64,000 nt of DNA, taken from the NCBI GenBank assembly GCA_036383895.1, contig DASVNK010000022.1, positions 33,738 to 97,737 on the forward strand. The letters run 5' to 3'. Each line of letters begins with the position of its first letter. The first letter of the stretch is position 1. Made by a program: the position numbers and the translations under genes. The stretch comes from Verrucomicrobiia bacterium (GTDB taxonomy: Bacteria; Verrucomicrobiota; Verrucomicrobiia; Limisphaerales; SXQI01). This document shows positions 1-34,133 of this stretch, piece by piece. Under the pieces are notes generated by a model. The model searched no databases and was not told where the DNA came from. It saw nothing but the letters and a program-made list of their open reading frames with translations.

Positions 1-542
1 ACACCGGCGCTTACGGCATCGTCGTTCCCATGGTGAACACACGCGCCGAAGCTGAAGCCGTCGTCGCCGCGGCCCGTTACGCGCCGGTCGGGCAACGCTC
101 CATCGGTGGCCAGCAACACGCCGCAAATTTCGACACTGATTCCGCCACTTACTACTCGCGCGCCAACGATGAAATCCTCGTTATCGTGATGCTCGAAACC
201 AAACAAGCCATCGGAAACGCTGATGAAATTCTGCGCGTTCCTGGCATTGACGCCTTTTTCATCGGCCCGAACGACCTCCACAATTCCTATGGCAAACCGC
301 CCGCGTTCGAGAGCGACGCCCCCGAATTCATCAATGCGCTAGAACACCTCCTTGCTATGGGCAAAAAACACAAGGTGCCCGCCGGCATCCACGTCGCCGA
401 TTCCGCGGCCGCCCAACGCCGCACCCAGCAAGGCTTCCAATTTATCGCCGTGACCAGCGAAGCCGGCATGATGCTCTCCAAAGCTGCCGAAATCACCAAA
501 GCGCTCGGCCTTAGCTACAGCGCGGCAGCGGTGAAATATTGA
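1..542 (+). CDS. HpcH/HpaI-family (class II) aldolase, C-terminal part; 5' end cut by window edge
   Basis: Reading frame is open from the window edge (..TGAYGIVVP-MVNTRAEAEAVV..). ..VIVMLETKQAI.. and ..FFIGPNDL.. resemble HpcH/HpaI aldolase. Ends with TGA at 540..542. Confidence 0.75.
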   Translation, partial: TGAYGIVVPMVNTRAEAEAVVAAARYAPVGQRSIGGQQHAANFDTDSATYYSRANDEILVIVMLETKQAIGNADEILRVPGIDAFFIGPNDLHNSYGKPPAFESDAPEFINALEHLLAMGKKHKVPAGIHVADSAAAQRRTQQGFQFIAVTSEAGMMLSKAAEITKALGLSYSAAAVKY

Positions 543-543
543 T

Positions 544-990
544 ATGTATCCGCCGCCCACGAATAACGACGAACAGCACCTGCACCTTCTGGCGATTTTT
601 CATTACGTCCTCGCTGGCTTAGCGGCGCTGGTCTCCTTATTCCCGGTCGTTCATCTGGTAATGGGTCTCTTCTTTATCTTCGGAGCGCCTAACCTCAATC
701 AACAAGGCGAGATGCCACCGCAAGCGTTCGGCTGGCTGTTCGTCGCGTTCGCCGGCATTATCATCCTGCTCGGGCTAACCGTGGCCGTGTTGATCTTTCT
801 CACCGGCCTTTATCTCTCCCGTCGCAAGAACTACACCTTCTGCTTCGTCATGGCCGCCATCGAATGTTTCTTCATCCCGGTCGGCACGGTCCTCGGCGTC
901 TTCACCATCGTTGTCTTGATGCGCGATTCCGTGAAACATCTCTTCGTCATTAGCCATGGCCAAATCGCCGAACGCCAGACTGGCGGCTGA
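544..990 (+). CDS. Hypothetical integral membrane protein (about 4 hydrophobic helices)
   Basis: 148-aa ORF starting 2 nt after the upstream stop. Long hydrophobic segments (LLAIFHYVLAGLAALVSLFPVVHLVMGLFFIF, FGWLFVAFAGIIILLGLTVAVLIFLTGLYL). No family recognised. Confidence 0.5.
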   Translation: MYPPPTNNDEQHLHLLAIFHYVLAGLAALVSLFPVVHLVMGLFFIFGAPNLNQQGEMPPQAFGWLFVAFAGIIILLGLTVAVLIFLTGLYLSRRKNYTFCFVMAAIECFFIPVGTVLGVFTIVVLMRDSVKHLFVISHGQIAERQTGG

Positions 991-1112
991 AAATCTGCGT
1001 CGTTAAACAGTCGTTGCAGGAGTGAATCTTTCTCTCCGCGTCGCTATGCACCTGCTGTCAAAACTGCCGGTTAACAGCACAAAGCGGCTTGTCATAGAAA
1101 TCATCAGAGCCA

Positions 1113-1553
1113 ATGCCACTGGAACTGCAAATTATCAGGCCGCCGGATTTTATACGGATGGGATCCTTGGGAGCGATGGACTTTGAATCGAGTAAGGAAG
1201 CTCTTCGAAAGCTCGCTTACGCGTGTCGAAAACGGGGAATCTTTCGTGCAGTGCTCGATTTGCGGGATCTGGCGATTCCGGCGACGCCGATGTTCACCAC
1301 CTCGGAACTAGCAGCGTTGGTCGACACGTTTCGCGAGGCGGGCTTTAGCAGCTACCAACGGCTGGCGGTGCTCTACCGAACGGATCCGCATCACGGCGCA
1401 CGGATGTTCGCATTCATCAGCACCTTGAAAGGATGGCAGGTGCGCTCCTTCGAGGATTTCGAGAGAGCGCTGATGTGGCTTCAACAGGCTGAAGATCAAC
1501 CATCGATCAATCCTGCTGATGCCGTTCAGATCCGTTTTGCCGGTGAGGATTGA
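1113..1553 (+). CDS. Hypothetical cytoplasmic protein
   Basis: 146-aa ORF with non-repetitive, protein-like composition. No motif recognised. Confidence 0.45.
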   Translation: MPLELQIIRPPDFIRMGSLGAMDFESSKEALRKLAYACRKRGIFRAVLDLRDLAIPATPMFTTSELAALVDTFREAGFSSYQRLAVLYRTDPHHGARMFAFISTLKGWQVRSFEDFERALMWLQQAEDQPSINPADAVQIRFAGED

Positions 1554-1592
1554 AGTTGGTGGGCTTCAAGTGTCGCGTGATGAGACGCGGCT

Positions 1593-1802
1593 TCAATCTT
1601 TTACGGGAAGGACGTTGATTGCTTTTACGATGAGTTGAACAGTGTCGCCAACCTTAAGATTCATTTCCTGAACGGACTCAGTGGTGAGAACGGAGGCCAT
1701 CTGGGCGGGAATGCTGATTTCGAATTTTACGAGGGACATGATCTTGTCGCTGGTGATGGAGGTGACTTTACCTGAGAGTTTGTTGCGAGCGCCGGCTTTC
1801 AT
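1593..1802 (-). CDS. mop: Molybdate/tungstate-binding TOBE-domain protein (Mop)
   Basis: 69 aa. MKAGARNKLSGKVTSI...VKFEI...LTTESVQEMNLKVGDTVQLIVKAINV is the canonical single-TOBE Mop pattern (SARNxLxGKV ... IKAS-V). Confidence 0.8.
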   Translation of the reverse strand: MKAGARNKLSGKVTSITSDKIMSLVKFEISIPAQMASVLTTESVQEMNLKVGDTVQLIVKAINVLPVKD

Positions 1803-1916
1803 GCGATTTGATTAGGGTGTCTTGAAACAAAAGTCGAGCAGCCGAGCGAACGATTCGCGGGCTGCCCGACTTGGAGGAACACTAAGGAACACGTCGTCCT
1901 GTTTTAGCGATTCGAC

Positions 1917-2948
1917 TTATTTGAGCGCGATCGTTTGTGGCGCGGGTTCGGAGGTGAAGTGGAGGACTCGCGTGAAGTCAGGATATGGGGTGCCGTTCAC
2001 TTCGACCCAGCCGCGAATGACGAGGTCGGGACGTTCGGCGGATTTTGGAGTGAGATCGAAGTCGCGGCCTTCGGCCCATTCGAGGCGGTTCTCGTCGAGG
2101 CCACCGAACCACTCCCCTGCTTTGCCCGCGACGGCGGTATCGGCGGATGAGATATCCAGCGGAACCCAGCCGATGCCGGGGGCGAAGAAGCTCGGCCAGC
2201 AGCGGTAACCGGGGTCATGTTCTTTGCCGACGTTCTCGGGCTTGAGGCGGCTGCCATAGAAAAGTCGGCACGGGATGTTGCGGGCGCGGCAGAGCGCGAT
2301 GAAGAGAGCGTGCTGATCGGTGCAGCAATCGCCGCTGCCGGCGAGACATTCGTCCGCACTGCCGAGGCAGAGGCCTTTTGGTTTGGGGCCGCTCTTGGAG
2401 TAGTGCTCGCTTTTTTCGATAACGAAGTGAAAGAACTTCTCGGCCTGCAGCACGGGATTTCTTTCAGAGCCGGCGAGTTCATCGGCGATCTTCTGGATCT
2501 TCGGCGTGACTTCCATGTGTTTTTCGTCGCGGCGCAATTCGGCCGGGAAGGCGCGAATATGTTCGGGCGTAATGACTCCAGCTTTCCGGGCATCGGCCAT
2601 TCCGCTTATCTTTTGACGAACAACTTTGAATTCAGTGACAATTTTTAGCGGCTTCGATTCATTCGCTTTGCTTTCGCCGTAAAGCCAGGATCGGCCATAT
2701 TTTTGGTCGCGAGTGATTTGAAGATTTTCCGGAGCTTCGATGATTTTGAACTCGAGCACTTTTTGGCCGGGCCGATCTTCAGGCATCCAGAACCAGCCGC
2801 GAACGGTCCCTTTCTCGGAATTGGGCACGCTGAAGGTTTGGCGGACGGTGAAGATGGTGTCGGCGGAGAGCGACGGTTTCGCGGCGATGCATGTAATCGC
2901 CGCAATAGATGCGGAAAGAAAGGTCCGCAGGTTTTTGGAATGGGTCAT
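1917..2948 (-). CDS. Secreted transglutaminase-like protein, variant triad (Cys-Arg-Asp)
   Basis: N-terminal signal peptide (LSASIAAITCIAAKPSLSA). Transglutaminase core GDCCTDQHALFIALCRARNIPCR ... GYRCWPSFF ... GWVPLDISSAD. The position normally His (HxW) is Arg. Confidence 0.8.
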   Translation of the reverse strand: MTHSKNLRTFLSASIAAITCIAAKPSLSADTIFTVRQTFSVPNSEKGTVRGWFWMPEDRPGQKVLEFKIIEAPENLQITRDQKYGRSWLYGESKANESKPLKIVTEFKVVRQKISGMADARKAGVITPEHIRAFPAELRRDEKHMEVTPKIQKIADELAGSERNPVLQAEKFFHFVIEKSEHYSKSGPKPKGLCLGSADECLAGSGDCCTDQHALFIALCRARNIPCRLFYGSRLKPENVGKEHDPGYRCWPSFFAPGIGWVPLDISSADTAVAGKAGEWFGGLDENRLEWAEGRDFDLTPKSAERPDLVIRGWVEVNGTPYPDFTRVLHFTSEPAPQTIALK

Positions 2949-3036
2949 AGGTATTGTTGGAGTTTGAACGTTTATTGTCAGGTGCCACGCAAATTGGGGT
3001 GAATGGCCGTCTTTGCGTGGCTAAGTGGTGTTGTGG

Positions 3037-4176
3037 TTAGAACCGCCAGTTGAGGTCGAGACGAAAGCGATTGCCGTCCTGCCCGGTCGTGATTGCTTCG
3101 ACGAGGAAGAGGCGACCCATGAGGTTGATGTTTTTCGAGATGGCGTAGGCGACGCGGAATTCGTGGCCTTCGAAGTCGCTGGAACTGGTTTGCGGACCGC
3201 TGCCCCAACGATGCCAGTCGTCCTGCGCGTAGGAGGCGTTCACGGCGAAGGTTTCGATGTGCGCGTAGTAATACGCGACGAGCCAGTCGTTCTTTTCTTT
3301 GAGCTGCCCGTATTGGACTGAGAAGACGTAACCGAGATCTTCGTCTTCGTCCTGCGGCGGGAAGGGCGCGACATCGGCCGCGTCGTAGCTCGCGAAGTTG
3401 TGGAAGATATCCGCGCCGAGGGCGAGCGGACGCTCCGCGATGGGAATGCTCCATTGCACGTTGCCCACGCCGATCAGGTAATCGCGTTCGCCGTTGCGCG
3501 TGAGAAGATTGTTCGCGCCTTCTTCGCCGTGCATGTAGTGGATCGCGCCGGCGACGGTGAGTTGGGACGGATCGATGGGAAGTGTGTATTTGAGTTGCGC
3601 GCCGAGGAGTTGGCCATTGAGGTCGTAACCGCCATCGGGCAGATAGAAGCCGCCCACGGTAGCAGTGAGGGCACCTTTATTAAGCGCGTGATCGTAAATT
3701 GCGGCGACGCCGGTGGGGGTTACATCTTCATCCCAGAACAGTTCGTTCTGCTGCCAGAATGGAAAAACATTCCGGCCAGCCCAGATGGTGAACGGCTTTT
3801 CCTGATATTGGACGAAATACCGGTCGACGACGAAATCGAGATCGTCGCGGGGACCATCGTCGGCCCAGAAGGTGAGGTGGGGCGATGTTTGGCTGCGGCT
3901 GTTGCCGGTGCGGACGCGCGCGCCGACGGTCCAGTCTTCGGCGGGTTTGTAATTGAAACCGAAGCGTCCGCGGAACCGGCCCCGATGACGATCGTCGCGC
4001 ATCACGCCAGCGGCGGTTTGGGAATCCCAGTCGACTTCGTAGCGCAGGCGGACGTCGCCGTAGAAGGTGAGGTTGGTGTTTGAATCGATCCAGTCAATGC
4101 CGGTGTTAATGGCCTGAGTGGAGGCGAGGCTGGTGAAGGCGAACATGCCAGCAAGGATTTTATGTTTGGTTTTCAT
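3037..4176 (-). CDS. Outer-membrane porin (putative-porin / Porin_5-like)
   Basis: Signal peptide MKTKHKILAGMFAFTSLASTQA. Also GDVRLRYE motif, alternating amphipathic strands and C-terminal ...LDLNWRF aromatic terminus. Confidence 0.75.
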   Translation of the reverse strand: MKTKHKILAGMFAFTSLASTQAINTGIDWIDSNTNLTFYGDVRLRYEVDWDSQTAAGVMRDDRHRGRFRGRFGFNYKPAEDWTVGARVRTGNSRSQTSPHLTFWADDGPRDDLDFVVDRYFVQYQEKPFTIWAGRNVFPFWQQNELFWDEDVTPTGVAAIYDHALNKGALTATVGGFYLPDGGYDLNGQLLGAQLKYTLPIDPSQLTVAGAIHYMHGEEGANNLLTRNGERDYLIGVGNVQWSIPIAERPLALGADIFHNFASYDAADVAPFPPQDEDEDLGYVFSVQYGQLKEKNDWLVAYYYAHIETFAVNASYAQDDWHRWGSGPQTSSSDFEGHEFRVAYAISKNINLMGRLFLVEAITTGQDGNRFRLDLNWRF

Positions 4177-4218
4177 GGTAGGTTTTTTGTTTTGGTGGGT
4201 TAGTTGGTTGGTTGACTT

Positions 4219-5223
4219 TTATAAGTCTCGGAAGGTCCACGTTTTTTCTGTCTTCACCGATTTCCCATCGGCTTCGGCGTAGGGATTAAGGAAGTAGTTC
4301 AGAGGTGCACCGGATTGCTCAGGTGCGAGGGTGATGTCGCGACCGGTGGTGAGCGTGACGCGATTGGGAGTGTGGGAGCCGAAGAAATATTCCGCGCGTT
4401 GGGGAAAACGATCGGCTTCCGAGCAATCGACCGGCACCCAGGATTTGCCGCGCACGAGGAAAAACGCCCAGCAGTGATAGCCGCCGAGCGGCTCGTCCTT
4501 GCCCTTTTCGTATGGCAGGTAGAGGCCAATCTCGAAACCGCTCGGAATGCCCGAGGCGCGGCAGAGTGAATTGAAGAGGGCGTGAAAATCAGTGCAGTTT
4601 CCTTTACCGACATCGCACGCGTGGCGGGTGCTGCCGAGGCCCCAACCTTGATGATTTTTGTCGTAGGTCATGCGACCGAGAACGTGGTCGTAGATCGCGC
4701 GGGCTTTTTCGAGGGTCGTGGTTTTGCCTTTGGTAACTTCGGCGGCCAGCTTGCGCATCTCGTCATCGACCAAAACCAATTTGTCCGCCGCCAGGAATTC
4801 AGCCTGCCGTTTCGTAAGAGCGGCGCTTCCATCGGTGCTGAGTTTCGCGAGATCCGCGACGATTTCTTTGCGCTCGCACGTAAAGCGCATCGTGAATTCG
4901 TGACTGGATTGCGGCGAATCGATTTCCCAGTAGCCGATTAAATTCCCGTACTTGGTTTCTGTGTGGTACGAAGGCGACTTCGAGAAGGACAAGTCGGTGA
5001 TGGTCTGCGCGGTGCTGTTCTGCGGCACCGGAAACCAGACTCTCAGTTTTTTCGTGCCCTCGGGTACTTCGGAGATCTTGCCGTTGTATTCGATCGAGAA
5101 TTTCCGCGAGCCAGCCGGCTTCATATATTCCGGCGCGACGTTTTGTTGGTTCGGCGGTTCCTGTCCGCAGATAATTTGCGCGAAGAGTAAAGCGGTAACG
5201 ATGCTGATGTTTGTTAGTTTCAT
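4219..5223 (-). CDS. Secreted transglutaminase-like protein (intact Cys-His-Asp)
   Basis: Signal peptide MKLTNISIVTALLFAQIICG. Core GKGNCTDFHALFNSLCRASGIPSG ... GGYHCWAFF ... SWVPVDCSEAD. Paralogous in layout to 1917..2948. Confidence 0.8.
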   Translation of the reverse strand: MKLTNISIVTALLFAQIICGQEPPNQQNVAPEYMKPAGSRKFSIEYNGKISEVPEGTKKLRVWFPVPQNSTAQTITDLSFSKSPSYHTETKYGNLIGYWEIDSPQSSHEFTMRFTCERKEIVADLAKLSTDGSAALTKRQAEFLAADKLVLVDDEMRKLAAEVTKGKTTTLEKARAIYDHVLGRMTYDKNHQGWGLGSTRHACDVGKGNCTDFHALFNSLCRASGIPSGFEIGLYLPYEKGKDEPLGGYHCWAFFLVRGKSWVPVDCSEADRFPQRAEYFFGSHTPNRVTLTTGRDITLAPEQSGAPLNYFLNPYAEADGKSVKTEKTWTFRDL

Positions 5224-5250
5224 TGTTTAATTGGGATTCTTTCCCCTGAA

Positions 5251-5388
5251 GCTGTGTCGAATGGCGTGCCCTTCCCCCAAGGCGGTGAGCTGTTCTGCGC
5301 TGCAACGGAGGCGCGGGGGATCAAACTCACACGCCGGTCAATCGCTCGCTAGAGGCTGTGGGGAAATGGACACGCCATTTCACACAGC
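5251..5388 (-). promoter_or_regulatory. Structured 5' leader (nested inverted repeats) upstream of the transglutaminase/porin operon; candidate cis-regulatory RNA
   Basis: Three nested inverted repeats. 5251..5268 pairs with 5371..5388 (16 of 18 complementary). 5272..5277 (TTCCCC) pairs with 5360..5365 (GGGGAA). 5281..5289 (GGCGGTGAG) pairs with 5326..5335 (CTCACACGCC, one bulge). All lie between the start codon at 5223 and the next gene. Confidence 0.4.
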
Positions 5389-5613
5389 GGGTAGTCACGT
5401 GAAGGGTCTATTGAAGTGAAAAACTAAAGATGCGCGCGCTGCGACTTCCGGCCGGAACTCAGTTGTGGCGAACGATTGCATCTTAGGATCGGCGCCGACC
5501 TTATCGTTTTTTGCGCTGTTGCTCACCAATTTGGGGTGAGTTGCACCAGCGCGGGGGCGAACCTCTTGCAGAACGGGGCGAAGGTGCGAATCGTGAGATA
5601 AGGAGATTGAGTT

Positions 5614-6255
5614 ATGAAAAGCATGTTCGACCTGGCTGGAGTCTTTGCGGCTGCGATATTTTTGAGTGGCTGCGCGACGCAACATTCTGGAACGGCCGGG
5701 GGAAAAGCAGCTGGGACTGAGCAAGGCTCTGCGAGCAGTGCGGACGTAGAAGATGCAAGCTTTGCGCGGCAAGCTTGCCAAGCCGCTGCCGGGCAGGTGG
5801 AGATCGCGCGGCTGGCCGCGTATAACACGAAAACGCGGGAAGTACGGCGGTTTGCACGCGAACTACAAAAGGATCTTACGAAAGCCGACAAGGAACTCGC
5901 GAAGATTTTCAGCAATCGAGGCCTAGCGCCTGAATCGGATTACGAAGATTACATGAAGAATTCTTTTGACCGGTTGGTCGATCTAAAAGGTGGCGAGTTC
6001 GACGAGGCGTTCAAAGAAGAAGTGATTCACAGCCACGAGCGCGCGATCAAACTTTTCGAAGAACAGAGCAATAGCGGCAGCGACGCCGGGTTGAAGACCT
6101 TTGCGGAGACGCAATTGCCGCAGCTTCGCGCGAACCTGGATGCAGCGCGCAATCTGCCGGTAAGCACGGATACGACCGGGCCTGAACCAATCAACGAAGC
6201 AACGAAAGTCATCAATCATCCCGTCACGCGCAGCGTCCAAATCGGCGCGAGGTGA
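5614..6255 (+). CDS. DUF4142-family lipoprotein
   Basis: Lipobox-like FLSGC after a short signal peptide. The ..GGEFDEAFKEEVIHSHERAIKLFEEQ.. pattern is typical of DUF4142. Confidence 0.7.
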   Translation: MKSMFDLAGVFAAAIFLSGCATQHSGTAGGKAAGTEQGSASSADVEDASFARQACQAAAGQVEIARLAAYNTKTREVRRFARELQKDLTKADKELAKIFSNRGLAPESDYEDYMKNSFDRLVDLKGGEFDEAFKEEVIHSHERAIKLFEEQSNSGSDAGLKTFAETQLPQLRANLDAARNLPVSTDTTGPEPINEATKVINHPVTRSVQIGAR

Positions 6256-6323
6256 TTTGTATTTGAGGGAGCTTTCTGGATGATTGCCGTGCGAGGTTTG
6301 TTTGTTTAGCTTCCGAACCTCGC

Positions 6324-7430
6324 ATGAACGCTTCGAAACTTCTTTGGTGCAGTCTCGGTTTCCTACTTCTCGGCGGTCCGCTGGCGGCGCTCGCGCAGGA
6401 TTCGAAGGCCCCGTTCCGAGAGTTCGTGCTTGTCGATGTCTCGGTCGTTTCATCCAGCGCCATCGCCAAGTGGAAGGAGGAGAAGTTCTCAGGAGTGGCC
6501 ATCGTTTTGAACGAGGGTGCCTCGAAAGCCGAGCAGCGCGCTGCGGGGAAATCGGTTTCCGAGGCGCAGCTTGATTTGTTCTGGTGGATTGAAGTCGCGC
6601 GGAATCCGAAAATGGCTAGTGCGAATCCGCGTTGGATGGCCGGCCTGGGATCGCACGCGGACTGGCAAAAACGTTTTTCAAACGCTCCGGAACCAGGCTT
6701 TAACGAGGTGGCGAAAGCGTATCCGTGGGTTCCGATTGTTTATGCGGAAGCTTACGATGCGCACCTTAACCGCATCGAGCAGTTGCTGAAAGATTTGCCG
6801 CAAGCAAAGGGTGTGTTCGTGAACGACCTGCAGGCCGGACCAGGTTCGTGTGGATGCGGCAATTTGCAATGCCGCTGGGCGGTGGATTATCACGTTCGCT
6901 CGACCGCAAAAAAAGTCCAAGGTGGGAATGTCGCGGGCAGGTTTGTGATCGAGCTGCAAAAGCGCACCCAGCAAACGTTGATCCCTGTTTGGACAACTGA
7001 GTGCGAACACGCGGATATGCCGACGGAAAAGAACGGTGGAAAAGCGAGCACCGGATTCTGTGGGAGCGTTGGATGCGCGACAGGGGCGTGCCCCACGGAG
7101 TTCTCGGCGCAGCTTAGTGAATTACTTTCGACACACAATGGGGCACTAGGCGTGCTTGCCACGCATGAATCTTTCCAGCGTTCCAAAGAGGAAATCGGCG
7201 GTGGACCGGAATGGGTGATCGATGCGATTGATTACATTCACAAAACGTTGGCCGCCGAGCGCGGACGGGTGATCGCGAACGACCGTATCTGGGCGGTAGT
7301 AAACGGTGGGAATGCTGAGAGCGAACAGCGCGTACGTGAAGCGGCGAAACGTTCGGGAGCGGCGGTGGCCATTGTTGCGCGCGTGTCGCTGGACCAAACT
7401 TATGAACCGCGCATCATCCGCGCTGAATAA
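6324..7430 (+). CDS. Secreted Cys-rich hypothetical protein
   Basis: Signal peptide MNASKLLWCSLGFLLLGGPLAALA. Two cysteine clusters (GPGSCGCGNLQCRW; GFCGSVGCATGACP). No family recognised. Confidence 0.55.
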   Translation: MNASKLLWCSLGFLLLGGPLAALAQDSKAPFREFVLVDVSVVSSSAIAKWKEEKFSGVAIVLNEGASKAEQRAAGKSVSEAQLDLFWWIEVARNPKMASANPRWMAGLGSHADWQKRFSNAPEPGFNEVAKAYPWVPIVYAEAYDAHLNRIEQLLKDLPQAKGVFVNDLQAGPGSCGCGNLQCRWAVDYHVRSTAKKVQGGNVAGRFVIELQKRTQQTLIPVWTTECEHADMPTEKNGGKASTGFCGSVGCATGACPTEFSAQLSELLSTHNGALGVLATHESFQRSKEEIGGGPEWVIDAIDYIHKTLAAERGRVIANDRIWAVVNGGNAESEQRVREAAKRSGAAVAIVARVSLDQTYEPRIIRAE

Positions 7431-7462
7431 AAAATCCCCGCGTCCGAAAACGCGGGGATTTG
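7431..7462. terminator. Bidirectional rho-independent terminator between convergent genes
   Basis: A-run, then 9-bp stem ATCCCCGCG / CGCGGGGAT (7434..7442 and 7451..7459), then T-rich tail. Confidence 0.6.
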
Positions 7463-7484
7463 CACTCTTACGTAAGCGAGGAAC

Positions 7485-8618
7485 TTAGAAACTACGTCCT
7501 GCCGAGAAGATGGTCATGAAGTCTGCGAACGCCGCATCTCCTTCGGCGCCGGCGAAGTTCGCCTGGCGTTTGCGATAGAGCGCGACGGGTGCGCTGAACG
7601 ATGCGAACCAACCATCCTTTGCGTAGAGCAATCCGGGCTCAATCGAGATCGCATAACCGGGACGACGTCGACCCTCATCCGATCCGAACACGTCGGTTGG
7701 TGGACTTCCCTCAAGCCGTCCGGCAAGAGTGAAACTCAAGCCATACTTCGGAAGGAATTCGTAGCCCAATCCGATCCGCGCCAAATACGAATCACCGGTG
7801 GACCAGACCTGACCGGTATCGTTCGGGCCGTCGTATACGTCAGCGTCCTCTTCAGGAACGAAGATGTAAGTTGCGGCCGCGTAGATGGTGAAGTTGGTAA
7901 ACAATTCCCGATATCCGTAGACATCGGCAATGATTCCCCAGGCACCCGAGCCAGGTTGAATGGAATTATCCACGTTTCGGATTTCAGCGCGTGGCGTGTA
8001 TTGACCAGCACTGTTTGTCGCAAATACCGTGAACGTATCTTTATGATCCTTCTGACCCGTCGGGATGACGACACCCGCGCCGAACGAGAAGTTCATTTTC
8101 GGATTCTCATCTGGATCAAGGATCCAGCTCGTTGCGAGTAACTTAATGTCACTCAAGCCCGATGCGGAGGTTTGGTAGCGGTCGATAACTGCTCCGCTGA
8201 CCACCCCTTCAGGAGACGCGTAGTCACTCGGATTCATCAACGAGCCGTCCGGGTTCCGCCGGGTATCGCGCACCGCTTGTGAGCGGGTGGCGAACTGAAA
8301 CGGAATGGAGAGCGTGGCTGAGAGCCGTTTAGTGAAAGTGTAACTCGCCGAAAGATCGATCAGGTGGACGTCATTGATAACCTGACTGCCTTCTTGTTCG
8401 CGATGAACTTGTTCCTCGCTACCAACGAAATGGCGATCGGAATATTGCCAGCGATGGCTCAACGCGACCGTCCATGTACCTTGGTCCTGCACTGTTGCTG
8501 CACCCAAACTGGGCGAGCTAATGCGTGCAGTTACTCACCCTTGCGCCAGGGCCTTTGGGCCACTGGCCAGCATGCCGACAAACGCCAGCACGCCGATAAT
8601 TGGTTTTAAGTATCTCAT
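7485..8618 (-). CDS. Outer-membrane beta-barrel protein with one in-frame TGA between signal peptide and barrel (candidate selenoprotein, or pseudogene)
   Basis: ATG at 8618 encodes MRYLKPIIGVLAFVGMLASGPKALAQG, then TGA (plus-strand tca 8535..8537). It continues in the same frame (8618-8507=111 nt) into the 340-aa ORF. That ORF begins only at a TTG, has no signal peptide of its own and ends ...SAGRSF. Confidence 0.5.
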
Positions 8619-8730
8619 AATTTGTTCGATGGGACGGGCGGAACACTAGGGCGACATAGGTGCATTGTGAGGAGCTTAGGGGTGAACTGCTGGTTTTAGG
8701 GGGTGAGCCGCCAGGCTTTCATTGCGAAAC

Positions 8731-10653
8731 TCAGCGCAAAATTCGTTTATCGCCGTCGCGGTGGGTTAATCCGGCGCGGTCGAGGTGCTCGAGGAGCGGG
8801 ATGATCACGCGGCGACTGGTACCGAGAGCCTGACGAAGTTCGCTGGCGGTTGCGGCTCTTTTTGCGTGGAGAAAGCGCTTTACTTCGTCACTCGCTTTTT
8901 GCAGTGCGGTGGAGAGGAGGACGACGTCTTCATTGAGCAGTGTTGCTTCGCCTGTTTCGAGTAAATAGCGCAGTGCCTGCTGAGTGGGGGCGTCTGGAGC
9001 GATCTCCTTTCGCGACGGTGGGTCGAACGGTTTCGTCGAAAGGGCGGAGCGGACGTTCGCGCCGGCGCTTTGCAGGGCTGGTGGAAGAGTAAGCTGATGG
9101 GATGATTGTTTGATCGAGCTCCCAACGAGAACGAAGCCTTCGCTCAGGAGTTCAGCGAGCAGGTCGTCGAAGAGATTTGCGGTCCGGATTTGTTCGGGAA
9201 GCTCGGTTTTGAGCTCGGCGACAGTGAGGCCGACGCGATTGGGATGAGCTTTGTGTTCGGCGCGGATGCGTTGTGTGGCGCGCTTCTTCGCGTCATCCCA
9301 GAACGCTGGGAACACGAGCGATGAGCCGCGTAAGAGAAGCTTTCGTTCGTCGATTAGCTTATTGAGAGCGGCGGTAATCTCTGTATCGCTGAAGCGCGAT
9401 AACGTAAAAAGCCTCTCCTTGGGCGCGATCCATCGGCGTTGCAGTTCCGTGTGGAGGAGCGTTTCCAGATCATCCGGTGCGGCGGCACGAGCGCGTAGGA
9501 ATCCAAGCTGCGCTTCAGATTTCACCTTGTCGTCCAATGGTTCAACATCGAGAACGGTCCCGCCGGCGAGCGTTGTCTGCTCCGACCAATCGCGAACAAT
9601 GAACCGATCTCCTACGAAGGCGTGGAGTTTTTCTTCGAGTCGAAGTCGCGCAATCGCGGACTCGCCTGGATTCAAATCGGATTGGTCGAGGAAAATAATG
9701 TGGCCGGCAACGTTCGTGCTTCCCAGATGGATGCGCACGCGCGCTCGGTTTTTGATCGGTCGAGAAATGCGCGTTTGGCTCCCGGGAGTGCGTCCGCTTT
9801 TTTTGAGGAGAACGCCCAGATCGCTCGTCTCGTGTTTCAAGTGCGGGAGAGTGATGACGTCGCCACGTTGAAGGGCGGGGCCTTGCACGTCGGGAATATT
9901 TAGAGCCGTGCGGGTTCCGGGCGAGCTGGCTTCGACATCGCGATTGTGGTTCTGCACGCTGCGGACTCGTCCCGTGGCGCCCGATGGTTGCACCACGATC
10001 TCGGCGCCGCGCACGAACCTACCGCCGGTCGTCGTGCCCGTCACAACACTTCCAATGCCGCGCAAGATGAATACGCGATCCACGGAGAGGCGAGGTTTGC
10101 CGAAATCGCGCGGCAAGGGCGTGGATTGTAAAGTTTGAGTCAGCGCTTGCTTTAATTCCGCGAGCCCTCGTCCGCTCACGATGGAAGTGGGCACGATCGG
10201 CGCATCCGCAAGCGATGAGTTCGCCAGTTGGTTTCGCACTTCGCGGATCGCCTGCTGTTCGTCGGTCGCGAGATCAATCTTGCTCAACGCGACCACACCT
10301 CGTGCAACGCCGAGATAATCCAGGATCTGCAGATGCTCGTCCGTTTGTGGCATCCACCCGTCATCCGCCGCTACGACCAGCAGCGCGAGATCGATCGAAC
10401 CAACCCCCGCCACCATGTTCTTCACGAAATCTTCATGGCCGGGCACATCGACGATTCCGACATGATAAGTCAGTTTTTCTCCACCCGCTTCTGCTTGCAG
10501 GTCGAGATGTGCGAATCCGAGATCAATCGTAATTCCGCGCGCTTTCTCTTCAGGCAAACGGTCTGGGTCAATGCCGGTCAGAGCTTTCACGAGAGAACTC
10601 TTGCCGTGATCGACATGCCCTGCAGTAGCCATGATGTAATTGCGCAGGTTCAT
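8731..10653 (-). CDS. selB: Selenocysteine-specific translation elongation factor SelB
   Basis: GTPase motifs [23 protein letters not shown]. Long C-terminal extension as in bacterial SelB. The track start at 10671 is a TTG overlapping selA. ATG candidates are 10653 (4 nt after the selA stop) and 10632 ([12 protein letters not shown]). Confidence 0.9.
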
Positions 10654-10657
10654 CGCG

Positions 10658-12034
10658 TTATCGGCCGGCAAGCACCTCGCGAACCGCGGAAATCAACATT
10701 GCATCCTGCCGCGGGAAAATCGTTCGGAGATCAAGCCGATACCGATTCTCCGCGATGTAACCAATGACCGGTGTGGACGCCTCTCGCATCCGATCTGAAA
10801 ATTTCGCCAGGGCAATTCCTTTCGGGTGCAGCGTGAGAACGACCGATTCAATTGTCGACTGCGGGAGTGTTCCACCACCGACCTGTGCTTGCCCGCGCGC
10901 GACCTCGGCTTTCACAGGCAATTCAGTTAACGCCTCAACAATTTTTCTCGCGCGATCCTCCAATGCGCCTAAATCCATCGCCAACATCGTCACCGTTGGC
11001 ACTTGCTCCGCCGCGCGACCACTCAAATACAGATCCACTGTCGTTTGCAGCGCGGAAAGGATCAGCTTGTCACAACGCAACGCCCGAAAGAACGGCTCCT
11101 TCTTGAGTGCGGCGACATGCTTCGCATTCCCCGCGATGATTCCCGCCTGCGGTCCGCCGAGTAATTTGTCGCCGCTGAAACAAACCAAATCAACGCCCCG
11201 CACCAACACCTCTGCCGCTGTCGGTTCATGTTCGATCTTCGCCAATTTCTCCGTATCGAGCACCGCGCCACTTCCCAAATCTTCCACGAAAACAATTCCA
11301 TGCTCGCGAGCAAGGTTGCCCAATTCCTCCGTGCTCGCAGACTCGACAAACCCACCCATGAAGAAATTACTGCGATGCACCTTGAGAATCATTCCGGTTT
11401 TCTCGGTGAACGCGCGGCGATAATCCTCCACTCCGGTTTTGTTCGTGGCGCCCACCTCACGCAATCGCGCGCCACTTGCCTCCAAAACTTCCGGAATCCG
11501 AAACCCGCCACCGATCTGCACCAATTCGCCGCGCGAAATAATGACTTCCTTCCGCTTGCCCGAACAAAAATGGCGCAGCATCAACACCAGCGCCGCCGCA
11601 CAATTGTTCGTCACGGTCGCCGCTTCCGCACCGCAGAGCAGCGCCAAATTATTCTCGAGATACGCCGCGCGACCGCCGCGACTGCCGCTGCCTAAATCAA
11701 ATTCCAGGTTGTTGTAATTGGCTCCAATGCTCGCGAGCGTCTCTATCACCGAATCAGCCAGCGGCGATCGACCAAGGTTCGTATGAACGACAATCCCGGT
11801 TCCATTAATCACCGGCTGAATACGCGCGCGTCGAAGATTTTCAATAGCTGCGCGAATCGCACCGACCACATTGTCGAAGCTGGGAATTTCCTGCGCGGAT
11901 CGAAGCGCCACCAATTCACGTCGAATAATGGCGAGAACCGCTGGTCGCGGTAAATCCATCGCACCGAGTGCCTGCAAAACTTTTTCGACACTCGGAATTC
12001 CGCGCAACCTGGCTTGTTCTAGCTTTTCACCCAT
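10658..12034 (-). CDS. selA: L-seryl-tRNA(Sec) selenium transferase SelA
   Basis: ..LRGIPSVEKVL.., ..INGTGIVVHTNLGRSPL.., ..FSGDKLLGGPQAGIIAG.. (PLP lysine). Likely start is MGEKLEQ at 12034, overlapping the selD end by 16 nt. The 36-aa extension of the track ORF (to 12142) looks spurious. Confidence 0.9.
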   Translation of the reverse strand: MGEKLEQARLRGIPSVEKVLQALGAMDLPRPAVLAIIRRELVALRSAQEIPSFDNVVGAIRAAIENLRRARIQPVINGTGIVVHTNLGRSPLADSVIETLASIGANYNNLEFDLGSGSRGGRAAYLENNLALLCGAEAATVTNNCAAALVLMLRHFCSGKRKEVIISRGELVQIGGGFRIPEVLEASGARLREVGATNKTGVEDYRRAFTEKTGMILKVHRSNFFMGGFVESASTEELGNLAREHGIVFVEDLGSGAVLDTEKLAKIEHEPTAAEVLVRGVDLVCFSGDKLLGGPQAGIIAGNAKHVAALKKEPFFRALRCDKLILSALQTTVDLYLSGRAAEQVPTVTMLAMDLGALEDRARKIVEALTELPVKAEVARGQAQVGGGTLPQSTIESVVLTLHPKGIALAKFSDRMREASTPVIGYIAENRYRLDLRTIFPRQDAMLISAVREVLAGR

Positions 12035-13071
12035 ATCTTCACGGCCTTCGCACGAACAATTCGTCCAATAACTTCTGCGCAGGGCGTGCGTAATTTCTTC
12101 AAAATCTTCAGCACCGCACTCAAATTTCCTTCTGGAACGCACAGCAACATTCCGCCGCTCGTTTGCGCATCCGCAGCGATGAAGCGAATTGACTCATCCG
12201 CGCCAGCGAACTCTGTAAACTCTTCCGCGGCTTTCAAATTCTCCCGCGTTCCACCAGGGATGCACTCCTCCTCGATCAACCGTTTCACCTGGGGATCAAT
12301 AAACGGCAGTTTGGTTCCGGCGATCTCCGCTCCCACCTCACTGGCGCGGCACATCGAGCCGAGATGACCGAGCAATCCAAAGCCAGTCACATCCGTGCCC
12401 GCGCGCACCAGGCCCGCTTCCGCAACTTCCGCGCCCGCGATATTCAATGCGCGCATCACATCCACTGCGTTCTGGATCAACCGCCGCGACCCGATTCTGC
12501 GCTTCAACGCCGTCGTGACGATGCCTGTCCCCAGCGGCTTCGTTAACACGAGCAAGTCGCCAGCACGCGCGTTCGCGTTTGTAATCATACGCTTCGGATT
12601 CACCATTCCCGTGACCGATAGACCGTAAAACGGTTCTGGATTCTTAATGGTGTGCCCACCGGCCAAAACGCATTTTGCTTCAGCAATTTTTTCCGCGCCG
12701 CCGCGCAAAATTGTATTCACCACGGCGAGTGGGACGAGATCCGTCGGCACGCCCATCACGTTCATGGCGGTCAATGGTCGACCACCCATTGCATAAACAT
12801 CCGAAAGCGAATTCGCCGCCGCGATCTGTCCGTATAAATACGGATTATCAACGATCGGTGTGAAGAAATCGACCGTTTGCACGAGGGCGCGATCTGGACT
12901 GAGGCGATAAATCGCGGCGTCATCCGCAGTCGCAGCACCCACCAGCAAATTCGCGTCTTTAAATTGTGGGAGCTGATGCAAGACCTGCACCAGCGCCGTT
13001 TGGCTGAGCTTGGAGGCTCAACCGGCGCAGGATGAGAGGGACGTCAGCGCAATTCTCTTTGCTCGTGCCAT
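12019..13071 (-). CDS. selD: Selenide, water dikinase SelD, Sec-containing form (UGA at codon 18)
   Basis: The track ORF starts at a GTG (12990). The same frame continues upstream to ATG 13071: MARAKRIALTSLSSCAG-TGA-ASKLSQTALVQVL... TGA (plus tca 13018..13020) aligns with the catalytic Cys/Sec of the SelD GxG(C/U)xxK loop. The rest is typical SelD (..NLLVGAATADDAAIYRL.., ..GGHTIKNPEPFYGLSVTG..). Confidence 0.9.
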
Positions 13072-13104
13072 AACCTTCACACCTCCTTTCGGTAAAAATG
13101 AGTT

Positions 13105-13201
13105 TGGCGGAGAGGGAGCGAATCGAACACTCCTCGATTTGCAAAACAAACCGACAACGGTTTTGAAGACCGCGAGGGCCACCAGGCACCCATCACTCTC
13201 C
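13105..13201 (-). tRNA. selC: tRNA-Sec (anticodon UCA)
   Basis: 97 nt: GGAGAGTGATGGGTGCCTGGTGGCCCTCGCGGTCTTCAAAACCGTTGTCGGTTTGTTTTGCAAATCGAGGAGTGTTCGATTCGCTCCCTCTCCGCCA. Anticodon loop CUUCAAA. Long variable arm (CGGUUUG-UUUU-CAAAUCG). T-loop UUCGAUU. Extended acceptor stem and encoded CCA. Lies 33 nt upstream of selD. Confidence 0.9.
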
Positions 13202-13236
13202 GGAAAGAAAGAAAACGAAAATATGAAGACCGAACC

Positions 13237-13473
13237 TCATCGAAGATCGCGCACTTGGCGGACGAGCGCGTCGGGATCGGGAAACTCTCCCGTGGCGATC
13301 TTCGAGTAAATCTTTTGTCCATTAACGATGACTTCAAACACCCCGCCGCTCGAAGGAATCAACTTCAGCGCAGCGACGCGATGCTTCAGTTTGAGCAACT
13401 TATCCGCCAGACCGACGGCATGCGGCTCATAGTTTCAAGCCGCGCAATACTCAATTGAAATTTCTAAAGCCAT
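13237..13473 (-). CDS. SelW/Rdx-family selenoprotein (CxxU redox motif), 78 aa
   Basis: Hand translation gives MALEISIEYCAA-TGA-NYEPHAVGLADKLLKLKHRVAALKLIPSSGGVFEVIVNGQKIYSKIATGEFPDPDALVRQVRDLR*. TGA is at plus 13435..13437. IEYCxxU plus ..LIPSSGGVFEV.VNG..IYSK..TG.FPD.. is the bacterial SelW-like/Rdx signature. Absent from the ORF track. Confidence 0.85.
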
Positions 13474-13682
13474 GCTAAAACCATGTTGTGGGACCCGCTC
13501 ATCCCCGTCAAGCGGTGCGAAATCCGGCCGGTGCAATCAATAAGCGGAGTATCACCGAACCCCTTTTCAAGTCTGTGCATTGAGAAAAAGATTAACCACT
13601 GGGTTTTACATCACGAGCCCCACGGCGGCCGTTAAATTAAAGAAGATGCGAAGCACGATGTTTTCGGGATCGCGGCCGACCG

Positions 13683-14780
13683 CTAAGGAAAGCGGCAATT
13701 GAGGACGAGATCGCTGCCGTTCACGGAGAGGTTGGTGATTTCCATTGGTGCGGTGGCGCGGATGCGGAAGAATCGATGTTGGTGCGGGTTTGGGGTGCGG
13801 AAGAGATTGTTCACCGAATCAAAGGTGGCGGAGGTGTCGGTGGTGAAGGTGCCGTTAACCGCGGTGGAGTATTCGAGAATGGGAGCGGGTGAAGGGACGC
13901 CGGGGTCGCCGATGATGCTGCGGATCCATTCGGCGCGGACGGAGATGCGCGACAGGTAGAATCCGCCGGCCTGGGCGGTGGGGAGGTCGGGGGTGTAGGT
14001 CCAGCGGTTCTCGCCGCCTTTGTAGAGGCCGCCCTGGTCGAAGATAGCCGCTTGAAATCCGGGACCGGTGGGCGCGGTGTTATAAGGACCATCGACCGCG
14101 TAGTTGATCCCGGCGAGTTTCCAATGGTCGCCGTCTTTAATGAAAGCAGCGCCGCTGCTATCGCCGTACACGAGGGCACATTCGTTTGCGCCGCCATTGG
14201 CATCGAAGGTGGCGCGCAGGACGGTACCTCCAGCGAGTGTGGCGGCCACGATGTTGCCGTTTGCATCGAGGACTTCTTCGAATTTGTTTTCGCCCCAGCG
14301 GAGAATGCCATCGTGAGTCCCCCACCCCCAGCCTTTGGTGACCGGGTTGAGGGTGCCGACCTGGATGGGAGCGCCGCGTTGAACGCCGCGGCCGATGACA
14401 ACGAAGTTTTGACCGACTTCGGTGGTGTTGGTGTAGAGCTGGGCCCAATCGGTGAAGGGCGGAGTGACTTCCCAGATGGTGAGGTCGGTGCCGGTGTCGG
14501 AAAATTTGGCAACGGTGGTGTGAGTGCGGCCGTTGAGCAGAAATGGATGGCCGACGTCGCCACCGACGTGGGTTGCGGCGATGAAATGGCGCGAGCTGAT
14601 GGCGGTGCCGAGGAAACCGCCCCAGTGGCCTTGCCATTGCCAACCGCTGCCGGCGAGTTGACCGGCGGGTGCGTTGGTGTTGTGGGCGGGATCGCCGGTG
14701 GAATAGAAAATGACGGCGCGCGACGGTGCGACGTACGCGAGCAGCAGACAAAGAAAGATGAGTCTTTGACTTAGGCGCAT
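13683..14780 (-). CDS. Secreted trypsin-like (chymotrypsin-fold) serine peptidase domain protein
   Basis: Signal peptide MRLSQRLIFLCLLLAYVAPSRA. Candidate triad His (FIAATHVGG), Asp (GTDLTIWEV), Ser (VYGDSSGAAF) in the expected order. Confidence 0.65.
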   Translation of the reverse strand: MRLSQRLIFLCLLLAYVAPSRAVIFYSTGDPAHNTNAPAGQLAGSGWQWQGHWGGFLGTAISSRHFIAATHVGGDVGHPFLLNGRTHTTVAKFSDTGTDLTIWEVTPPFTDWAQLYTNTTEVGQNFVVIGRGVQRGAPIQVGTLNPVTKGWGWGTHDGILRWGENKFEEVLDANGNIVAATLAGGTVLRATFDANGGANECALVYGDSSGAAFIKDGDHWKLAGINYAVDGPYNTAPTGPGFQAAIFDQGGLYKGGENRWTYTPDLPTAQAGGFYLSRISVRAEWIRSIIGDPGVPSPAPILEYSTAVNGTFTTDTSATFDSVNNLFRTPNPHQHRFFRIRATAPMEITNLSVNGSDLVLNCRFP

Positions 14781-33455: not shown

Positions 33456-34133
33456 ATGAAAAAACAATTCTTTGCTCTGGGAACCGCGGCCCTCATGACC
33501 GCTGCTCTCCCCTCAATCGCGGCTGATGCCGAAGTCGAAGTTAAGACGGATGTCGATAAACCAAAAACCGAAGCCCGCACTGAAATCAAACGCAAGGGCG
33601 ACGTCGATACAGACGTCCGCGTTGATCGCCAATCCGTCAAACGCACGGACAAAGCAAGCGGCTTGATTGGAATGGAAGTTCGCAACCGTCAAAACGAAAA
33701 GCTCGGCGAAATCAAAGACCTCGTTATGGACATGAATTCCGGAAAAGTTTCCTACGTCGTTCTGTCGGTAGGAGGATTTCTTGGAATCGGCGAGAAGCTG
33801 ATCGCCTTGCCCCCGAACGTAGCGAAAGTCGGCGACAATCCCGAATACATCGTCCTCGATGCGGACAAAGCCAAGATTCAGGCTGCTCCTGGTTTTGCCG
33901 CGACCGCCTGGCCAGCTCCGAACGATCCCGAAGTGAATCGTTACTGGACTGATCTGAAGGCCACGGGTTCCGCCGCCTCGAGCGAAAAAGGCCGGGACAT
34001 CGATGTTGATGCCGATGTGGACGTCGATAAGAAGAAAGCATCCGGCAAAGTCGATGTCGATACCGACAAAAAGAAGATCTACACCGACGCCGATAAAGAC
34101 CGCAACGTGAAGGTCGAAGTGGAAAAAGATTAA
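33456..34133 (+). CDS. Secreted PRC-barrel domain protein with Asp/Lys-rich tails
   Basis: Signal peptide MKKQFFALGTAALMTAALPSIAA. PRC-barrel core LIGMEVRNRQNEKLGEIKDLVMDMNSGKVSYVVLSVGGFLGIGEKLIALP. The track ORF start (33414) is probably too far upstream. Confidence 0.7.
   Translation: MKKQFFALGTAALMTAALPSIAADAEVEVKTDVDKPKTEARTEIKRKGDVDTDVRVDRQSVKRTDKASGLIGMEVRNRQNEKLGEIKDLVMDMNSGKVSYVVLSVGGFLGIGEKLIALPPNVAKVGDNPEYIVLDADKAKIQAAPGFAATAWPAPNDPEVNRYWTDLKATGSAASSEKGRDIDVDADVDVDKKKASGKVDVDTDKKKIYTDADKDRNVKVEVEKD

Follow-up and report, generated by a model that had tools for sequence, protein, structure and literature searches.

Porin and Cys-Arg-Asp transglutaminase-like genes as a recurrent pair of soil Verrucomicrobiota within a probably composite four-gene locus

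The 64,000-nucleotide stretch of DNA considered here (the window, meaning this stretch at its full length) stems from an assembly labelled Verrucomicrobiia bacterium (GCA_036383895.1, contig DASVNK010000022.1, forward-strand positions 33,738 to 97,737). Positions 1593 to 5223 of its minus strand successively encode a transglutaminase-like protein (TG1), an outer-membrane porin, a second transglutaminase-like protein (TG2) and a small Mop-like protein. In soil Verrucomicrobiota, porin and TG2 constitute a conserved cassette of two genes, and TG2 belongs to a family displaying an arginine at the position of the catalytic histidine. We consider it somewhat probable (about 0.55) that the four genes are juxtaposed units of different evolutionary distribution and not one conserved operon, and that the porin takes up an anion with cysteine-bearing proteins as its periplasmic partners. 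Proteins with the transglutaminase core PF01841 are very common in bacterial genomes while few of them have a known role, and porin and TG2 offer a concrete pair for probing non-canonical periplasmic chemistry of this fold.

TG1 (334 residues, 4219..5223, minus strand) is predicted to be an exported protein composed of an N-terminal beta-sandwich and a PF01841 core with residues Cys210, His250 and Asp266. It is followed after 42 nucleotides by the porin (379 residues, 3037..4176, minus strand), a predicted outer-membrane barrel, and after a further 88 nucleotides by TG2 (343 residues, 1917..2948, minus strand), an exported paralogue of TG1 with Cys209, Arg249 and Asp265 (GDCCTDQH ... GYRCW ... 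VPLD). The Mop-like protein (69 residues, 1593..1802, minus strand), separated from TG2 by 114 nucleotides, consists of a single TOBE domain without signal peptide. The co-directional genes and their gaps, as well as the domains of all four proteins, had been reported in an original prediction made from the sequence and were recovered here from the listing of open reading frames (ORFs) and by Pfam. TG1 matched Transglut_core (PF01841) over positions 1-108 of the 108-position profile (E 5e-23, 81.9 bits against a cut-off of 23), and TG2 matched the same family (E 2.3e-12, 47.6 bits against 23). The porin was recognised by Porin_5 (PF16930; E 2.1e-22, 79.8 bits against 22); as this match spans only positions 156-278 of 535, the sequence would represent a distant or partial member. 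The Mop-like protein exceeded the cut-off of the TOBE profile (PF03459; E 3.4e-8, 34 bits against 22.3) and reached 47 bits on NCBIfam model TIGR00638, under its 55-bit cut-off. Signal-peptide-like N-termini were recognised by inspection in TG1, porin and TG2, supporting the envelope location proposed earlier for these three proteins; none was seen in the Mop-like protein.

The paralogy of TG1 and TG2 was confirmed by 28% identity over 291 residues (BLASTP, E 2e-26). Both BLASTP and three MAFFT alignments set GYRCW of TG2 on GYHCW of TG1, which places the arginine in the column of the catalytic histidine, as predicted, and not outside it; the cysteine (GNC or GDCC) and the aspartate (VPVD or VPLD) are retained in both proteins. 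In a transglutaminase alignment of 77 rows, three of them partial, all 69 complete sequences of the histidine type (non-TG2) displayed Cys-His-Asp, and the five genomic TG2 orthologues displayed Cys-Arg-Asp. A search of a large protein collection with TG2 returned 395 proteins at E ≤0.001. The best 120 of these 395, with 64-100% identity, all carried GYRCW, and their cysteine motif was GDCCTDQH in 105, GDTCTDQH in eight and GDCCSDQH in seven, the cysteine being usually preceded by a second one. A large subfamily is defined by this locus: it comprises at least 120 sequence clusters, predominantly of soil Verrucomicrobiota, and always displays arginine instead of histidine while cysteine and aspartate are kept.

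With Arg249 in the histidine column, TG2 fails to display the canonical Cys-His-Asp triad and, judged by its sequence, is a member of the transglutaminase fold without being a canonical catalytic one. As all 120 listed homologues keep GYRCW, Cys-Arg-Asp is a selected family trait under purifying selection and not a product of decay. Since arginine always occupies the site of the general base, TG2 probably does not act as a conventional hydrolase or transglutaminase. The earlier description of TG2 as probably inactive is too simple for a protein whose Cys, Arg and Asp were kept in 120 out of 120 listed homologues. Arginine residues stabilise thiolates or oxyanions in peroxiredoxins, arsenate reductases and phosphatases. 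A literature search yielded no description of a Cys-Arg-Asp transglutaminase-like family or of its pairing with a porin, and a protein atlas look-up gave generic transglutaminase clusters only.

The coupling of a transglutaminase-like protein to a dedicated porin, part of the original prediction, recurred in other loci. Among 41 related genomes, TG2 orthologues were found in five (G000, G001, G009, G028 and G036), four of which also contained a porin orthologue, each time directly upstream of TG2; the porin orthologue never occurred without TG2 in these genomes. A scan of metagenomes gave 58 TG2 loci, 54 of which encoded a TG2 of at least 55% identity; 16 of these could not be judged, and in 20 of the remaining 38 the porin adjoined TG2, being directly upstream on the same strand in 19 and downstream in one. 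Clustering of all neighbours at the 58 loci assigned the porin family to 21 loci and the next family to four, so that the porin cluster was the only recurrent TG2 neighbour. The order TG1-porin-TG2 recurred once, on metagenome contig L127 from a close relative (78, 78 and 68% identity, respectively), which ends inside TG2. As the porin-TG2 and TG1-porin adjacencies both recurred elsewhere, clustering is beyond chance for these two pairs; no such recurrence beside TG2 was found for the Mop-like gene. The synteny of all four genes fared differently: not one locus with the complete set was found among 58 TG2 loci, 63 TG1 loci and 40 relatives.

Shortened forms were also encountered. Locus L090 displayed a 33-residue C-terminal porin fragment (3010-3108) downstream of TG2, and loci L139-L141 contained 111-residue ORFs matching TG2 residues 49-125 only, with a distant porin paralogue in the vicinity. 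Such sequences resemble remnants of the cassette or versions of it reduced to single domains.

The AlphaFold-type model of the porin (predicted local distance difference test, pLDDT, 75.8) shows a barrel of about 16 strands (17 according to DSSP). A fold search with this model gave 337 matches in the PDB at E ≤0.001, and those listed were nearly all outer-membrane barrels, mainly porins. The model matched porins of the trimeric type, the best match being the OmpM1 barrel (template modelling, TM, scores 0.64/0.74), followed by OprB, MOMP and chitoporins, with OprP at rank 33. The outer-membrane barrel and signal peptide expected of Porin_5 were thus found in the model and by inspection, respectively; sequence searches of the PDB with the porin and with a porin profile gave no match. 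Eight arginines (R43, R45, R63, R65, R67, R69, R71 and R87) were invariant in 19 aligned sequences, and this ladder was kept even in two paralogues of 20-22% identity. The ladder residues lie on the first three strands of the model (E36-50, E63-76 and E82-90). Because invariant charged residues that alternate along the strands of a barrel are expected to point into its lumen, the channel is probably anion-selective. It would resemble in this respect the Pseudomonas aeruginosa phosphate and diphosphate porins OprP and OprO (2O4V, 4RJX), which display a run of lumen arginines comparable to the eight invariant alternating arginines encountered here and were both matched by the model (TMq, on the query, 0.54-0.57). 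In contrast to these, the window porin was not matched at E ≤0.01 by Porin_O_P (PF07396), the Pfam family of the anion-specific porins OprO and OprP. Neither pst nor phosphate genes adjoin the porin in the window. A complex prediction for mature porin and mature TG2 obtained a score of 0.00 and a mark of 0.32, and is neutral with respect to binding.

The AlphaFold model of TG1 (pLDDT 92.5) displays an intact triad C210, H250 and D266. In another alignment, which included three TG2 rows, C210 and D266 were invariant and H250 was nearly so. No match was found in a PDB sequence search with TG1, and its fold was matched by Foldseek to 3ISR, TgpA, TglA, the isopeptidase PeiP and human transglutaminases. 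The closest solved structure is 3ISR (E 1.8e-17, TM 0.60/0.69), a putative cysteine protease from Cytophaga hutchinsonii which, like TG1, combines a beta-sandwich with a transglutaminase-like core bearing Cys-His-Asp; according to its title it is a structural-genomics entry without assigned function. Second came the periplasmic domain of P. aeruginosa TgpA (6G49, E 1.3e-7), a membrane-anchored protein. Both display only 13-18% sequence identity to TG1, both differ from TG2, in which arginine replaces the histidine, and we know of no pairing of either with a porin.

Unlike TG2, with its single recurrent neighbour, TG1-type genes had no dominant neighbour: in a scan limited to one genome per species, the best neighbour cluster was present in eight out of 63 loci. 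Recurrent sulfatases, kinases and ABC/MacB parts were judged to be there by chance, being typical of planctomycete genomes, and a thioredoxin-like neighbour in L036 was dropped as it did not recur (one of 63 loci, with a weak match in L015). Seventeen loci (L023-L037, the window and L127) contained close TG1 orthologues of at least 60% identity, and eight of these displayed a barrel gene directly downstream of TG1. This barrel belonged to the porin family of the window in the window itself and in L127, and was DcaP-like in L024, L027, L030, L032, L034 and L035. The DcaP-like family gave weak Pfam DcaP matches, and its profile matched Acinetobacter baumannii DcaP (6EUS) with an E-value of 7.7e-11. 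The position of these six barrels is that of the window porin; their homology to it is nevertheless undetectable (hhalign probability 0.7%). Members of the DcaP family are reported to pass acidic organic solutes. A third Cys-His-Asp transglutaminase-like paralogue (TG3) followed the DcaP-like porin in L027, L030 and L035. In L030 and L035, the next gene encoded a TusA domain; L027 displayed no more than a partial match to it, some 1.4 kb further along. The TusA-domain product of L030 (8593-9147) and L035 (8429-8989), encoded directly after TG1, the DcaP-like porin and TG3, is a 184-residue protein with a cysteine-rich N-terminus.

A separate observation concerns locus L013 of genome G031, where a pair of neighbouring ORFs matching the RuvC-like and helical domains of C2c1/Cas12b and a phage-type integrase gene (2-3432) were found upstream of the TG1 orthologue. 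The two ORFs may represent a Cas12b that has been split or has degraded, carried by a mobile element.

The Mop-like gene was distributed independently of the cassette. It adjoined TG2 in none of the 58 metagenome loci and in none of four relatives, and was found beside TG1 in one of the 63 loci. Orthologues were restricted to G000, G018 and G031, the three whose TG1 is closest; in G018 the gene precedes tRNA-Sec and selD, and in G031 it is flanked by a helicase gene and a PIN gene, at a distance from both TG1 and the sel genes. Molbindins, known from Clostridium pasteurianum among others, are proteins that bind molybdate and consist of a single TOBE domain. The Mop-like protein of the window resembles them (TIGR00638) in its 69 residues and single TOBE domain, and differs by its score of 47 bits against 55 and by the lack of modABC or modE genes nearby, modA being absent from the first 14 kb of the window. 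It probably does not belong to the envelope unit.

Between TG2 and mop, a terminator-like element was identified on the minus strand (1822..1872), composed of a hairpin (1831-1872, 13+5 bp) and a U-tract, UUUUGUUUC, at 1822-1830; in the folding of this intergenic stretch, the hairpin is followed by UUUUGUUU. The 131-nucleotide stretch folded at -39.1 kcal/mol (z -3.12), and none of 200 shuffled sequences folded as well. The element resembles an intrinsic terminator or attenuator and suggests that mop is either transcribed separately or subject to attenuation. On the question of whether mop is transcribed separately, raised by the original prediction, this signal speaks for separation without proving it. 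Another hairpin (2984..3021, minus strand, 10 bp, no U-tract) is situated between porin and TG2, where 106 nucleotides folded at -20.6 kcal/mol (z -3.16; two of 200 shuffles folded as well); it may act as an intercistronic stabiliser or attenuator. The 42-nucleotide gap between TG1 and porin was unstructured. A simple promoter and terminator scan found sites no more frequently than in shuffled sequences and missed the hairpin before mop, in our reading due to the loop limit of the scan. An Rfam scan of positions 1-14000 gave only tRNA-Sec over threshold and no riboswitch, for example of the Moco class, in the gaps.

A selenocysteine locus lies on the far side of TG1, with all of its genes on the minus strand: tRNA-Sec (13105-13201, over the Rfam threshold) directly upstream of selD (12019-12990), then selA (10658-12142) and selB (8731-10671), the latter 3.5 kb from TG1. 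As an in-frame TGA is present in the 405-residue open frame of selD, upstream of the match, SelD is probably itself a selenoprotein. TG1-type genes were encountered in or beside sel operons in five lineages. In G018, TG1 is divergent from Mop-tRNA-Sec-selD-selA-selB; the orders found elsewhere were selD-HEAT-selA-TG-selB in G038, TG-tRNA-Sec-selA-selB in G198 (with selD further on), TG-selD-selA-selB in L041 and tRNA-Sec-TG-selD-selA-selB in L075. The possibility that these TG1-type genes encode selenoproteins was dropped, an in-frame TGA being reported in no match.

At the level of whole genomes, and with kinship uncorrected in all three comparisons, SelA was present in six out of six relatives with a TG1-type match (E ≤1e-50) against 12 out of 41 overall. 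An even phylum sample of 401 genomes included 13 with a TG1-type match (E ≤1e-45) and 23 with SelA. Four genomes combined the two, against a chance expectation of about 0.75; SelA, and SelD over the cut-off, were lacking in the remaining nine of the 13. Of 50 genomes in which TG1-type loci had been located, 48 had SelA; an even sample of their phylum, built around G460, the genome behind a locus labelled Pirellulaceae, already had it in 221 of 301. The four other holders of the porin-TG2 pair had neither SelA nor SelD (completeness 75-96%). The association between TG1-type genes and selenocysteine is real as an enrichment uncorrected for relatedness, and is not obligatory. A literature search retrieved no description of a transglutaminase-like neighbour of selenocysteine genes; a transglutaminase-like enzyme is listed, only at low rank, in the table of predicted YedE partners in Lin et al. 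2015 (PMC5322559).

In the reading preferred here, the porin would admit an anionic solute, and exported TG2 would bind it or react with it through a cysteine thiolate stabilised by the arginine. TG1, with its Cys-His-Asp triad, would probably be the catalyst acting on solutes of this class. Porin, TG1 and TG2 would co-operate in the periplasm or envelope. The Mop-like protein would be a cytoplasmic oxyanion-binding protein whose adjacency is specific to the genome of the window. On the basis of the sel, TusA and Mop neighbours, our leading guess for the solute is an anion of sulfur or selenium, and the main alternative is an acidic amide or peptide. Several observations weigh against this reading. 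Genome G028 contains TG2 without the porin, and no porin was found in 18 of the 38 judged TG2 loci, each with at least 400 nucleotides visible upstream; TG2 can therefore work in the absence of this porin, or together with a porin whose gene is located at another site. Confidence in the porin model is only moderate, and the folds nearest to it are general or sugar porins, far ahead of OprP. We know of no biochemical precedent for Cys-Arg-Asp on a transglutaminase fold. As about 20 nucleotides separate the U-tract from the start codon of mop, this gene may moreover be expressed by read-through, and hence be co-regulated after all, or be driven by a promoter that overlaps with the preceding hairpin.

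The original prediction suggested that the four genes might form a single module for uptake or processing of an oxyanion, with molybdate or tungstate linked to it through Mop. The shared orientation with short gaps, the TOBE domain with its 47 bits on TIGR00638, the arginine ladder suited to an anion and two molybdopterin-oxidoreductase matches in the genome are all compatible with such an operon. We nevertheless regard it as very unlikely, since the Mop-like gene was beside TG2 or the porin in 0 of 58 loci and 0 of four relatives and its orthologues occur in other contexts, a terminator-like hairpin precedes it, and its product stays below the model cut-off and lacks the signal peptide of the three exported proteins. 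Nothing ties TG1, porin and TG2 to molybdenum or tungsten; a search of the genome (completeness 94.8%) with TIGR01256 recovered no modA, TupA and WtpA not having been searched. The molybdate annotation of the locus, tempting but unsupported, was consequently removed. The opposite extreme, in which exported proteins are adjacent by chance and TG2 is a dead duplicate, is hardly credible either. It agrees with a four-gene order unique to the lineage of the window, with the nearly half of judged TG2 loci devoid of a porin and with the solitary position of most TG1-type genes, whose best neighbour cluster reached 8/63. It conflicts with the porin being by far the commonest TG2 neighbour (21 loci against four) and never occurring without TG2 in the 41 related genomes, and with a TG2 motif whose invariance across 120 listed clusters of 64-85% identity is unlike decay.

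Two further explanations concern the solute and are both judged unlikely, the first to a lesser degree. TG1 could be a periplasmic cysteine amidase or isopeptidase acting on an acidic amide or peptide admitted by the porin or, in a remodelling of the envelope, on peptidoglycan or porin tethers, with TG2 as a non-catalytic binder. Its canonical triad and fold, the presence of 3ISR, TgpA and the isopeptidase PeiP among the fold matches, and the DcaP-like barrel (6EUS), of a family reported to pass acidic organic solutes, as alternative partner point in this direction. LapG, a periplasmic transglutaminase-like cysteine protease acting on an adhesin that is retained in a pore of the outer membrane, illustrates the similar concept of a periplasmic transglutaminase fold acting at an outer-membrane channel, although its Pfam family (DUF920/BTLCP) differs from PF01841 and the locus described here lacks LapD, LapA and LapE genes. 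This explanation, however, accounts neither for the placement in sel operons and the TusA neighbour nor for the invariance of Cys, Arg and Asp in the 120 listed TG2 homologues, and peptidase or peptide-transport genes were not recurrent neighbours. Alternatively, and rather improbably, the whole could serve the acquisition of sulfur or selenium: the porin would admit an oxyanion or thiol conjugate, the periplasmic cysteine proteins would capture or convert it, and cytoplasmic carriers (TusA-like, perhaps Mop) would pass it on, to SelD in organisms using selenocysteine. This is favoured by the TG1-type genes in or beside sel operons of five lineages, with L075 placing one between tRNA-Sec and selD, by selB lying close to TG1 in the window, by the enrichment of SelA among TG1-type holders (6/6 vs 12/41; 4/13 vs 23/401; 48/50 vs 221/301), by the TusA-domain gene after the parallel cassette of L030 and L035 (partial in L027) and by the Cys-Cys doublet and arginine of TG2. 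Against it, the four other porin-TG2 holders lacked both SelA and SelD, nine of 13 TG1-type holders in the phylum sample had neither SelA nor a SelD over its cut-off, sel genes were within 10 kb in only three of 63 TG1-type loci, the background of SelA in Planctomycetota is already 73%, and the compared genomes are related and not independent. A broader version, which we put forward as speculation and consider quite improbable, is that periplasmic cysteine proteins of the transglutaminase fold and anion porins constitute an unrecognised sulfur or selenium capture system, the TG1 type feeding the selenocysteine pathway and TG2 being a thiol/oxyanion variant retooled for a related anion in organisms without selenium use. 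A supply of selenium by the TG1 type would explain its repeated insertion among tRNA-Sec, selD, selA and selB and, if the link is true, would add an envelope step to poorly understood bacterial selenium use.

A DUF4142 gene (5614-6255, plus strand, E 6.7e-31) is divergent from TG1, an adjacency that was not kept in other loci. Between TG1 and the sel block is a gene (6324-7430, plus strand) for a 368-residue exported protein without Pfam match, which displays the cysteine-rich motifs GSCGCGNLQC and FCGSVGCATGAC and had no relatives in any of the retrieved loci. Genome G198 contained two selD copies (C3:32867-33790 and C88:19925-20824), one with an in-frame TGA and the other in a 752-residue frame, possibly a fusion. 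Directly downstream of selB, the window encodes an outer-membrane barrel (7485-8507, minus strand, Phenol_MetA_deg E 1.3e-7), and a barrel of this type also adjoins selB in G018, with 64% identity.

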